NCBI GenBank assembly: GCA_963775345.1
Contig: CAVZIS010000007.1
Coordinates: forward strand, 85,486 to 149,485
Origin: Vicinamibacterales bacterium
GTDB lineage: Bacteria; Acidobacteriota; Vicinamibacteria; Vicinamibacterales; JAMQPK01
Direction: 5' to 3'
DNA: 64,000 nucleotides
The position numbers and the translations under genes are program-made. Under the pieces are notes generated by a model that made no database searches, had not been told where the DNA came from, and worked only from the letters and a program-made list of their open reading frames with translations. Numbering within the stretch: the stretch's first letter is position 1; each line of letters starts with the position of its first letter. This document shows, in pieces, positions 5,583 through 6,153 of the stretch.

Positions 5583-5632
5583 CCTGTAAGTGAAAAGTAG
5601 AAAGTAAAAAGTAGAAAGTAAAGAGCAAAAAG
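5583..5632. repeat. left inverted arm of the four-helix-bundle cassette (GTARAAA heptamers)
   Basis: cctgtaa gtgaaaa gtagaaa gtaaaaa gtagaaa gtaaaga gcaaaaa. The period is strictly 7 nt and 5585-5625 contains no C. It starts 2 nt after the SDR stop codon. Confidence 0.8.
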
Positions 5633-5720
5633 TAACGCAGAAACTGCAGTCTCGCGAACAAATTCACTGCGGTACTCTGTGCGACGGCCGGCGGCAAGCA
5701 TCGTGCAAGGTTCCACGGGC

Positions 5721-6099
5721 ATGAGAAACATGCCTGACCTGCTCGATCGCGTTTACCGGTTCTCGCTTGCATCGCTCCGGTTTTATCGACGACTGCCCAA
5801 AGGCCCGGATGCACAGGTCCCTGGGGTTCAGTTTTACAGAGCTGCCACATCAAGCTGGGCAAACTACCGAGCCGCTCAACGAGGACGCTCGCGGTCTGAA
5901 TTTATCGCGAAGCTCGGTAATGTCTCGGAGGAATCAGATGAAGCCGTGGGCTGGCTCGAAATTCATGCGGGATGGAGAGATTGCAAGTGACCCGACCCTG
6001 CTTGTCGAAGCGAAAGAACTGGCCGCAATGTTTACCGCGTCACTGACCAGCGCGCGGCAAAACTCTAAGCGGCAGGATAGAGATTCGCCGAATCGCTGA
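5721..6099 (+). CDS. four-helix-bundle protein (23S rRNA intervening-sequence protein family, PF05635/TIGR02436-like); one frame break near 5955
   Basis: MRNMPDLLDRVYRFSLASLRFYRRLPKG...QFYRAATSSWANYRAAQRGRSRSEFIAKLGNVSEESDEAVGWLE continues in ORF 5767..6099 (...DPTLLVEAKELAAMFTASL). Size (~126 aa) and motif spacing fit the family. Confidence 0.7.
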
Positions 6100-6108
6100 C
6101 TCTCGACC

Positions 6109-6153
6109 TCCTTTTTACTTTTCACTTTCTACTTTTTCACTTTCTACTTACAG
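6109..6153. repeat. right inverted arm of the four-helix-bundle cassette
   Basis: The reverse complement reads ctgtaa gtagaaa gtgaaaaa gtagaaa gtgaaaa gtaaaaa gg. The termini CTGTAAGT (5584-5591) and ACTTACAG (6146-6153) are perfectly complementary. The arm encodes the last four codons (VSRK) and TGA of pckG. Confidence 0.8.

Follow-up and report, generated by a model that had tools for sequence, protein, structure and literature searches.

A four-helix-bundle gene between inverted heptamer arrays in a Vicinamibacterales genome and the distribution of similar cassettes in bacteria

We identified a gene cassette that consists of a four-helix-bundle (4HB) protein gene of the TIGR02436 family bracketed by two inverted arrays of approximately five 7- or 8-nt units. 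The instance described here occupies positions 5584–6153 of a 64,000-nucleotide stretch of a Vicinamibacterales genome (contig CAVZIS010000007.1; hereafter the window), between a gene for a short-chain dehydrogenase/reductase (SDR) and pckG, which encodes GTP-dependent phosphoenolpyruvate (PEP) carboxykinase. The inverted-array architecture is not peculiar to this single locus but belongs to the gene family, in many phyla. On balance, we favor the view that the feature is a resident copy of a widespread hairpin gene cassette of the type known from the intervening sequences (IVSs) of 23S ribosomal RNA (rRNA), lying here outside rRNA in a transcribed spacer. Read-through transcripts from SDR or pckG would carry both arms, which could then form an imperfect duplex of ~45 bp. 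By analogy with the rRNA IVS, RNase III may cut the paired arms, so that the host transcription units would be insulated from the insertion and would tolerate it. The arms and the gene may spread, or may once have spread, as a unit, and the 4HB protein may take part.

The cassette in the window

The left (5') arm (5584–5635) begins 2 nt past the SDR stop codon (5579–5581). It reads CTGTAAGT GAAAA GTAGAAA GTAAAAA GTAGAAA GTAAAGA GCAAAAA GTAA, that is, ~6–7 tandem heptamers of the types GTAGAAA, GTAAAAA and GTGAAAA, and it is C-poor, with zero C in 5585–5625. The right (3') arm (6108–6153) is a degenerate, G-poor inverted complement of the left with the units CTTTCTA, CTTTTTA and CTTTTCA. Complementarity is perfect between the outer 8 nt of the two arms, CTGTAAGT (5584–5591) and ACTTACAG (6146–6153). 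By Tandem Repeats Finder, the period is 7/14 for the left arm and 7/15 for 6111–6149. The convergent pckG gene reaches into the right arm: its stop codon is the complement of 6137–6139, the preceding codons encode V-S-R-K, and 6137–6153 doubles as right arm and pckG end. The original prediction comprised five sequence statements, concerning the arms, their termini, the spacing to SDR, the shared pckG codons and the enclosed gene, and all five hold on re-reading of the bases.

In the minimum free energy fold of 5575–6165 (591 nt) the arms are the closing stem of a loop of ~470–480 nt (z = -3.06, 0/100 shuffles as good). When folded alone with a linker, the arms give -37.9 kcal/mol on the sense strand (z = -6.9) and -46 kcal/mol on the antisense strand (z = -8.0), and the pairing proposed earlier is thus predicted by both calculations. 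No described RNA family was identified with Rfam, either in a permissive scan of 3000–8000 or in a scan of the whole window at gathering thresholds. The window has no rRNA by Rfam and no tRNA was found in it, and the cassette is not within helix 25 or 45 of 23S rRNA. The ORF-in-stem architecture of the 23S rRNA IVS is therefore present here outside rRNA, as had been suggested.

The enclosed gene (5721–6099, plus strand; 125 codons) has one extra A at 5959–5961 that splits the ORF into 5721–~5961 and ~5959–6099; the window reads GAAATTC where 5/5 syntenic relatives read GAATTC. The statement that the arms contain only a ~126-codon 4HB gene is therefore correct as to the single TIGR02436 gene, but the ORF is 125 codons long and is not intact. 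Removal of the extra A yields a product of 125 aa that shares 96% identity with P0001, a metagenomic protein whose reading frame is intact. The nearest genomes are long-read soil metagenome-assembled genomes (MAGs) with comparable single-base breaks, for example at locus L011. The frameshift is probably an assembly error rather than a real break, since pckG in the same window has several single-base indels and related long-read MAG loci are broken likewise. In the window pckG occupies at least three reading frames, whereas locus L001 has an intact 587-aa orthologue.

The corrected protein matches TIGR02436 ('four helix bundle protein') at 45.3 bits (curated cutoff 24). Its match to Pfam PF05635, at 26 bits, is under the cutoff of 33.8; most homologues at 60–85% identity carry a precomputed PF05635 assignment. 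A first search returned 167 homologues at E <= 1e-3, mostly from Vicinamibacterales and other Acidobacteriota, with an intact protein at 96% identity as the best of them, and a profile from 30 homologues matches PDB entry 2RLD with E = 2.8e-13. The AlphaFold2 monomer (pLDDT 93, pTM 0.84) has four helices at residues 6–23, 29–54, 58–84 and 91–121, and its best Foldseek matches are 2RLD (TM 0.74–0.85), 2GSC (Xcc0516) and Avd (4DWL), a protein of diversity-generating retroelements (DGRs). Among six syntenic relatives the ratio of nonsynonymous to synonymous substitution rates (dN/dS) is 0.05–0.10, and synonymous sites are saturated in most pairs (dS > 1.5). Because dN/dS is low while synonymous sites are saturated, these comparisons indicate that the protein is functional and under strong purifying selection and that the locus is old in this lineage. 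A tblastn search found no second 4HB gene in the window.

In the leader between the left arm and the ATG, syntenic cassettes align only over GGCA-N7-TGCA. In the window this leader consists of a variable spacer (5636–5692, plus strand) and a -24/-12-like element, GGCAAGCATCGTGCA (5693–5707, plus strand; GG-N10-GC), with the ATG at 5721, 14 nt after the GC. Across 78 loci, 29 have GG-N9-TGC followed after 12–15 nt by an in-frame ATG or GTG, compared with ~0.01 expected per locus. The spacing is strict, with N9 in 29 loci and N6, N7, N8, N10 and N11 in 0, 0, 0, 1 and 0, respectively. Nearly all loci with the box are from Acidobacteriota, mostly Vicinamibacterales; L010, L041 and L077 are the exceptions. 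The consensus over the 29 loci is (C/T)GGCAnG-N5-TGCA, and the sigma-54 consensus is YTGGCACG-N4-TTGCW. This match suggests that the box is a sigma-54-type promoter, and no sigma-70-like promoter above shuffles was found in 5400–6300. Given the distance from the box to the start codon, transcription would begin 1–4 nt before the ATG. In this acidobacterial clade the 4HB gene would thus be transcribed from within the loop as a nearly leaderless mRNA that has the C-rich 3' arm and lacks the left arm, and the long stem would form only in read-through transcripts or in DNA. If left unpaired in an internally started transcript, the C-rich, G-poor 3' arm would resemble a Rho loading site.

Upstream and downstream of the cassette the gene neighborhood consists of M16 peptidase, cupin, DJ-1/PfpI, SDR, PEP carboxykinase and a beta-CASP metallo-beta-lactamase (MBL) protein. 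The SDR gene (4841–5581, plus strand) matches Pfam adh_short_C2 (1e-44) and adh_short, and pckG (6137–7949, minus strand) matches PEPCK_N and PEPCK_GTP on three ORF pieces. Conserved genes that single-base indels break into two or three frames, by comparison with intact orthologues, include pckG and the beta-CASP MBL gene (7963–9344), in addition to the break at 5959–5961. The source is most likely an error-prone long-read assembly, judging from these breaks, and frameshifts in the window deserve caution.

Arrays around other members of the gene family

We collected 80 genomic loci (L numbers) by protein pattern alone, and hence with no selection on the flanking DNA, from Acidobacteriota, Nitrospirota, Planctomycetota, Bacteroidota, Verrucomicrobiota, Chlorobiota, Ignavibacteria and others. 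For the 76 loci with both flanks, the window and L001 counted in, 220 nt upstream of the gene was aligned with the reverse complement of 220 nt downstream and scored against dinucleotide shuffles. An inverted repeat between the flanks is found at z >= 3 in 67/76 loci and at z >= 5 in 62/76. Upstream of the gene the best-scoring tandem period is 7 in 44 loci and 8 in 30; downstream it is 7 in 40 loci and 8 in 30, and the two sides agree. When the identical geometry was applied at random positions of the same contigs (n = 296), a score of at least 30 was reached at 1/296 control positions compared with 61/74 real 4HB loci (Mann-Whitney p = 1e-36). Matching period-7/8 arrays on both sides occur at 34/74 real loci and at 0/296 controls. 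Where a MAG has a second 4HB copy, that copy is armed as well, but with other units (L014/L016, L005/L035, L003/L021, L012/L054 and L019/L020). The expectation that other 4HB genes would carry inverted arms is thus borne out, including by second copies such as the first three of these pairs.

The median arm is 38 nt long, and the median number of units per arm is 4.9 (interquartile range 4.4–6.4). The units vary by lineage and include GTAGAAA, GAATCTA, ATTTGTA, ATTTGGTC, GATCTGTC, GATTTTT, GATTGAGC, GAACTGGT and others, many of them with a GAT(T/C)T or GAAT core in common. Despite these lineage-specific units the two arms of each locus remain complementary, which we interpret as covariation at the scale of the whole arm. 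Within a short evolutionary distance the number of units changes: the left arm has ~6–7 units in the window and 4–5 in L001, a 96%-identical relative, the difference being a 14-nt indel (2 heptamer units), and the right arms differ by about one unit. Three loci with a full-length 4HB gene (L013, L015 and L029) have decayed arms with scores of 16–25, compared with 50–68 in the syntenic L012, L016 and L035; arms can therefore be lost while the gene persists.

The number of units per arm raises the possibility that each arm is an array of sites bound by the 4HB protein of the same cassette as a toroidal pentamer, with ~five units wrapped around the ring as single-stranded RNA or DNA in the manner of TRAP or bound as an iteron-like duplex. 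Such binding would serve in autoregulation, in protecting or exposing the stem or in marking the element to be copied, and the hairpin would be secondary. This explanation partly overlaps the IVS-type cassette and is not exclusive of it. In agreement with the median of 4.9 units, 2RLD and 2GSC are both listed with five chains, A–E, and 2GSC is described as a homopentamer (PMC4990558). Periodicity is conserved and unit sequence is not, many units have a core in common, and the different units of paralogous cassettes in one MAG are what self-recognition predicts. The constant polarity of the arms, G-rich first in 62/64, and their conservation where neutral sequence is saturated (both described below) point the same way. 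However, the co-inheritance of protein and arm means that any correlation between unit and clade is confounded by descent. Additionally, unit counts vary between relatives as close as the window and L001, and empty hairpins with many different units are present in a genome that shows one 4HB gene in 64 kb. We consider it unlikely that the arms are primarily binding sites.

The order SDR, 4HB, pckG is common to L001, L002, L003, L010 and L011. Further orthologous spacers were located by a metagenome scan with the pckG C-terminus, which yielded relatives at 82–86% protein identity, and among these the cassette is downstream of pckG only in L089 and L090. In other relatives pckG and SDR converge on an empty hairpin with a different unit, AACGAAx in L083/L084, GCAGATT in L087 and CTCTGCG with a period of ~8 in L086. 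The spacer has a plainer hairpin in L088 and L091 and no hairpin at all in L085. Arms of the GTA[GA]AAA type are therefore present at the orthologous loci only where the 4HB gene is present, and these loci do not bear out the refuting case of the original prediction, in which the arms would be ordinary terminator sequence unrelated to the gene. A neighbor-joining tree of the pckG fragment (213 aa) has cassette carriers and non-carriers interspersed, which, if so weak a tree is taken at face value, implies several losses or gains of the cassette.

A further, unrelated genomic setting (group B: L004–L008, L014 and L022) has arms of the GTA[GA]AAA type around the related 4HB clade. Because these arms accompany the clade in two unrelated contexts, the arms travel with the gene and are not supplied by the site. 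The original prediction had considered that the hairpin might be a pre-existing capture site for the 4HB gene, a possibility that is disfavored by the same observation. In a syntenic alignment, conservation of the arms and of the promoter box persists even though dS has reached saturation, and purifying selection thus extends from the protein to the arms. In L010 (~2475–2530), a G+C-rich terminator-like hairpin 3' of a cupin gene is followed directly by a solo array, ACTTTTCACTTTCTACTTTCCACTTAC, of the same unit type as the cassette arms ~1.3 kb away.

Genomic settings and gene-less hairpins

By crude ORF calls, the upstream gene is on the 4HB strand in 51/66 loci, and the arms mostly begin or stop within ~15 nt of a neighbor's stop or start codon. 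Armed 4HB cassettes also occur on annotated plasmids of Gloeocapsa, Planktothrix, Nostoc, Chlorohelix and Bernardetia (cyanobacterial, Chloroflexota and Bacteroidota), with units that include the classical cyanobacterial AATCCCC of the short tandemly repeated repetitive (STRR) type. In these plasmid records the 4HB gene is found within defense clusters, co-oriented with both neighbors, between DUF1156 and Swt1-HEPN, between csx2 and cas1 and between drmD and an MmeI-like gene. No transposase, recombinase or reverse transcriptase is next to the cassette in the annotated plasmid examples. Two IMG/VR contigs (L169/L170) have an armed cassette between two co-oriented genes.

The nuo operon of a complete Acidobacteriota chromosome (L050) and of the syntenic L053 contains three inserts within 8.3 kb that share the arms (ATTTGTA/ATTGGTA)n. 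The order is nuoC, nuoD, a hairpin, nuoE, a 4HB cassette, nuoF, nuoG, a short element and the start of a further ORF. In L050 the hairpin after nuoD is at 3371–3467, the full cassette between nuoE and nuoF is at 3935–4368, and the element after nuoG, which has an internal deletion, is at 8127–8261. The 73-nt loop of this third insert is a fusion of two cassette fragments. The 5' fragment, which holds the ATG plus eight codons, corresponds to the initial 37 nt past the left arm (31/38 identical), and the 3' fragment, which holds the stop codon, to the final 33 nt (28/33 identical). The third insert is therefore an internally deleted cassette derivative, similar to a miniature inverted-repeat transposable element (MITE), and gene-less repeat hairpins can thus descend from cassettes. 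No direct repeat that would represent a target-site duplication is common to the junctions of the three L050 copies. At the cassette in the window, likewise, no target-site duplication is found at the junctions (flanks TGAAGTGAAC and CAGCGCCACC), and no transposase, reverse transcriptase, recombinase or HUH transposase is encoded by its neighbor genes.

The composition of the arms is strongly polar. G exceeds C in the 5' arm of 62/64 informative cassettes (p = 2e-16), and the same G-first polarity is found in 25/29 gene-less period-7/8 hairpins among the collected sequences. An inverted repeat reads X...rc(X) on both strands, and G-rich-first polarity is therefore a property of the hairpin class and not of ORF orientation. 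By this symmetry the same polarity is obtained both ways, and the C-poor 5' arm cannot be read as biased with respect to the ORF. On the sense strand, G.U mismatches in the arms are not in excess of A.C ones (117 vs 101, p = 0.31), and a stem tuned for sense mRNA was dropped after this test.

Both results are in agreement with an alternative in which the arms act at the DNA level, as cruciforms or single-stranded DNA hairpins that serve as recombination or insertion signals, with RNA pairing incidental. The attC sites of integron cassettes and the hairpin ends used by IS200/IS605 and repetitive extragenic palindrome (REP)-associated transposases would be comparable. The absence of strand bias in G.U-compatible mismatches, the identity of arm polarity on both strands and the several same-arm copies, including a deletion derivative, in one operon would all be explained. 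In addition, DGR homing with Avd needs a DNA hairpin or cruciform beside its target. However, no recombinase, HUH transposase or reverse transcriptase adjoins the cassette here or in the annotated examples, and no target-site duplication is found. The arm sequences also differ between families in one genome, with no single trans-acting enzyme evident. A function confined to DNA seems very unlikely to us.

Heptamer arrays are a general feature of the Vicinamibacterales genome. One strong empty hairpin in the window, (GGGATTG)n/(CTAATCC)n at 44807–44892, has a 26-nt loop with CACGCGTGTC (-70.3 kcal/mol, z = -9.2). Another, (AAGGAAG)n/(CTTCCTT)n at 55946–56027, has a 14-nt loop with CACGCGTGTC (-50 kcal/mol, z = -9.0). 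The latter was one of two empty hairpins named in the original prediction. The other, a pair of degenerate arrays (TAAGAGC)n...(GCTCTTA)n at 3420–3503 in the M16 peptidase–cupin spacer, is at most a weak hairpin, as the fold of 3415–3510 is no better than shuffles (z = -0.8). The loop motif CACGCGTGTC occurs twice in the 64 kb (0.44 expected), at 44842–44851 and 55979–55988, exactly in the loops of the two strong hairpins, which share it in spite of unrelated arm units. Four solo intergenic period-7 arrays, CTCTCTG (1947–1981), CTCTGCT (4740–4767), TAGCTGG (19300–19341) and GCTACGA (43135–43169), have no inverted partner within 1 kb. Besides its one cassette the window holds a solo three-unit arm-like array, GAAAGCA GAAAGTA AAAAGCA GAATG (49194–49219), that covers the stop codon of one ORF together with the ATG of the following one; it could be a cassette footprint or a chance match. 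The loops of the window's empty hairpins (14–26 nt) contain no recognizable piece of the 4HB ORF. The earlier idea that empty hairpins are cassette remnants is thus demonstrated directly for the fused 73-nt loop in L050/L053, whereas for the hairpins of the window itself, which may or may not be remnants, no tie to the cassette could be established.

The abundance of period-7 arrays and empty hairpins in the window independently of 4HB genes suggests a further alternative, in which repeat hairpins are bidirectional terminators, processing sites or insulators of the host at gene ends, where the 4HB gene has merely lodged. Such hairpins would arise and turn over by replication slippage and hairpin-templated correction. 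The different empty hairpins of the orthologous SDR–pckG spacer in L083/L084, L086, L087, L088 and L091 and the G-first polarity that empty hairpins share (25/29) are consistent with a host element, as are the heptamer repeats and convergent pairs found genome-wide in Xanthomonas and cyanobacteria (PMC4692102). However, arms occur at 61/74 4HB loci and only 1/296 positions of the same contigs, low-GC phyla included, and the same arm type follows the gene to a different genomic context. The cassette also occupies operon-internal sites where a terminator would be harmful, between nuoE and nuoF, csx2 and cas1, and drmD and MmeI. Moreover, a loop of ~480 nt makes a poor intrinsic terminator, and the long stem is not part of a stem-plus-U-tract; a scan for intrinsic terminators in 5400–6300 found one small minus-strand site (1.3 expected) and none matching the long stem. 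It is distinctly unlikely that the arms are host elements of this kind.

Several observations weigh against the IVS-type cassette that we favor. RNase III cleavage outside rRNA is proposed by analogy only. With no target-site duplication, transposase or reverse transcriptase nearby, mobility would proceed without a known mechanism. Within this lineage the cassette is syntenic and, at dS > 1.5, old, as would suit a long-established resident better than a mobile element that is still active. The arm units of the window's empty hairpins are unrelated to those of the cassette, and the statistics on gene orientation rest on crude ORF calls. The arms have no pairing signature specific to sense RNA, which would be compatible with action on both strands or at the DNA level. 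Finally, the internal promoter, if right, would give the gene a transcript without the left arm and complicates the picture of an mRNA processed by RNase III.

Known systems and implications

The closest known system is the IVS of 23S rRNA in Leptospira, Coxiella burnetii and Brucella, in which terminal inverted repeats likewise pair into a long stem whose loop holds a homologous ~120-codon 4HB ORF ('S23p'). In C. burnetii the ORF lies in a 28-bp stem that is cut by RNase III (Warrier et al. 2016, PMC4990558). The 5' side of that IVS has two or three tandem GACAGAT heptamers, variable between strains, with the RNase III site at the first repeat (PMC4990558). A tandem-heptamer stem of varying copy number is thus common to both systems, with two units of difference between the window and L001, and both are found in transcribed regions abutting functional sequence on both sides. 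However, the cassette lies between two protein-coding genes and not in rRNA, and its arms are longer and fully periodic (~6 units). Its ORF is under strong purifying selection, in contrast to the decaying and apparently untranslated Coxiella ORF. In addition, its loop holds a sigma-54-like promoter. The cassette is not an rRNA IVS in the strict sense, although it shares every other testable feature with the IVS class.

MITEs and other palindromic repeats, including the Correia elements of Neisseria, ERIC/IRU and REP/BIME, are transcribed and processed, and their terminal inverted repeats give long mRNA hairpins. The cassette resembles them in its terminal inverted repeats, in being wedged between genes and inside operons, in the short non-coding derivative beside a longer copy (L050) and in its variable presence at orthologous sites. 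Unlike MITEs, its arms are internally periodic (7–8 nt) and family-specific in sequence even within one genome, and the 'autonomous' form encodes a small non-enzymatic helical bundle. It also has neither a target-site duplication nor a partner transposase or REP-associated tyrosine transposase in the neighborhoods examined, although a trans-acting enzyme may be encoded elsewhere.

The arms are also similar to the heptamer repeats of bacteria (cyanobacterial STRRs such as CCCCAAT and those of Xanthomonas and Beggiatoaceae), which are intergenic 7-nt arrays of variable copy number, often in inverted pairs, near gene ends. Unlike the cassette arms, most catalogued heptamer arrays are not beside a 4HB gene. 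However, the Planktothrix 4HB gene is flanked by STRR1-type (AATCCCC)n and (AATCGTA)n arrays. In Xanthomonas, catalogued GGGAATC arrays form 70–75 convergent pairs (Rehm et al. 2015, PMC4692102); both there and in cyanobacteria, repeats of heptamers and their convergent pairs are known as genome-wide features (PMC4692102). One such array, (GGGAATC)x4, lies 6 nt after bccP and overlaps the start of XCC0516, the crystallized 4HB member (PMC4692102 supplement); in the searchable part of that study it is not linked to the 4HB family. The repeat of Beggiatoaceae is TAACTGA (PMC4679880). As far as their searchable text goes, these studies view heptamer repeats as G-quadruplex or translational elements and make no 4HB link (PMC4692102, PMC4679880). 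In the open full-text literature, a scope that leaves subscription-only papers and database comments outside, we found no paper other than the Coxiella IVS description that ties the 4HB family to flanking heptamer or octamer arrays.

The protein has the same fold as Avd, the accessory protein of DGRs, with Foldseek matches to 4DWL and 8UBE, although the similarity of the model to Avd is weaker than that to 2RLD and 2GSC. Avd is a pentameric toroid and a nucleic-acid-binding cofactor. Unlike the context of Avd, the neighborhood of the 4HB gene in the window has no reverse transcriptase, template or variable repeat.

A broader, tentative proposal is that the 4HB pentamer and its arrays form a self-recognizing unit, in which each subunit reads one 7–8-nt unit of its own arm (~five units per arm), that propagates as a cassette and leaves gene-less hairpins behind. 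Such a unit would be a main source of heptamer arrays and of ORF-bearing rRNA IVSs and the ancestral context of Avd. We consider this unlikely as a whole. If it were true, the 4HB family would be a main origin of the cyanobacterial STRRs, the GGGAATC pairs of Xanthomonas and the empty hairpins of the window.

TIGR02436/PF05635 is among the more abundant uncharacterized families of small bacterial proteins and is the family of the DGR cofactor Avd. The sole genetic context described for it so far is the 23S rRNA IVS; how that element arose and whether it moves have been open questions from the early 1990s on. Three points seem not to have been described before: the generalization across the family, the link with the heptamer repeats of bacteria and the existence of MITE-like derivatives. 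The cassette reading makes testable predictions, namely that RNase III cleaves mRNAs, that the pentamer binds the repeats of its own cassette and that leaderless expression in Acidobacteriota is driven by sigma-54. Cassettes inside essential and defense operons (nuo, CRISPR-Cas, DISARM and the DUF1156/Swt1-HEPN pair) may affect operon expression. The association connects the cassette with the excess of heptamer repeats that has long been noted in bacterial genomes. Given that free-standing 4HB genes have the same packaging as the IVS, with inverted arrays that abut neighboring genes and with deletion derivatives of their own, the rRNA IVS would be a special case of a general cassette.

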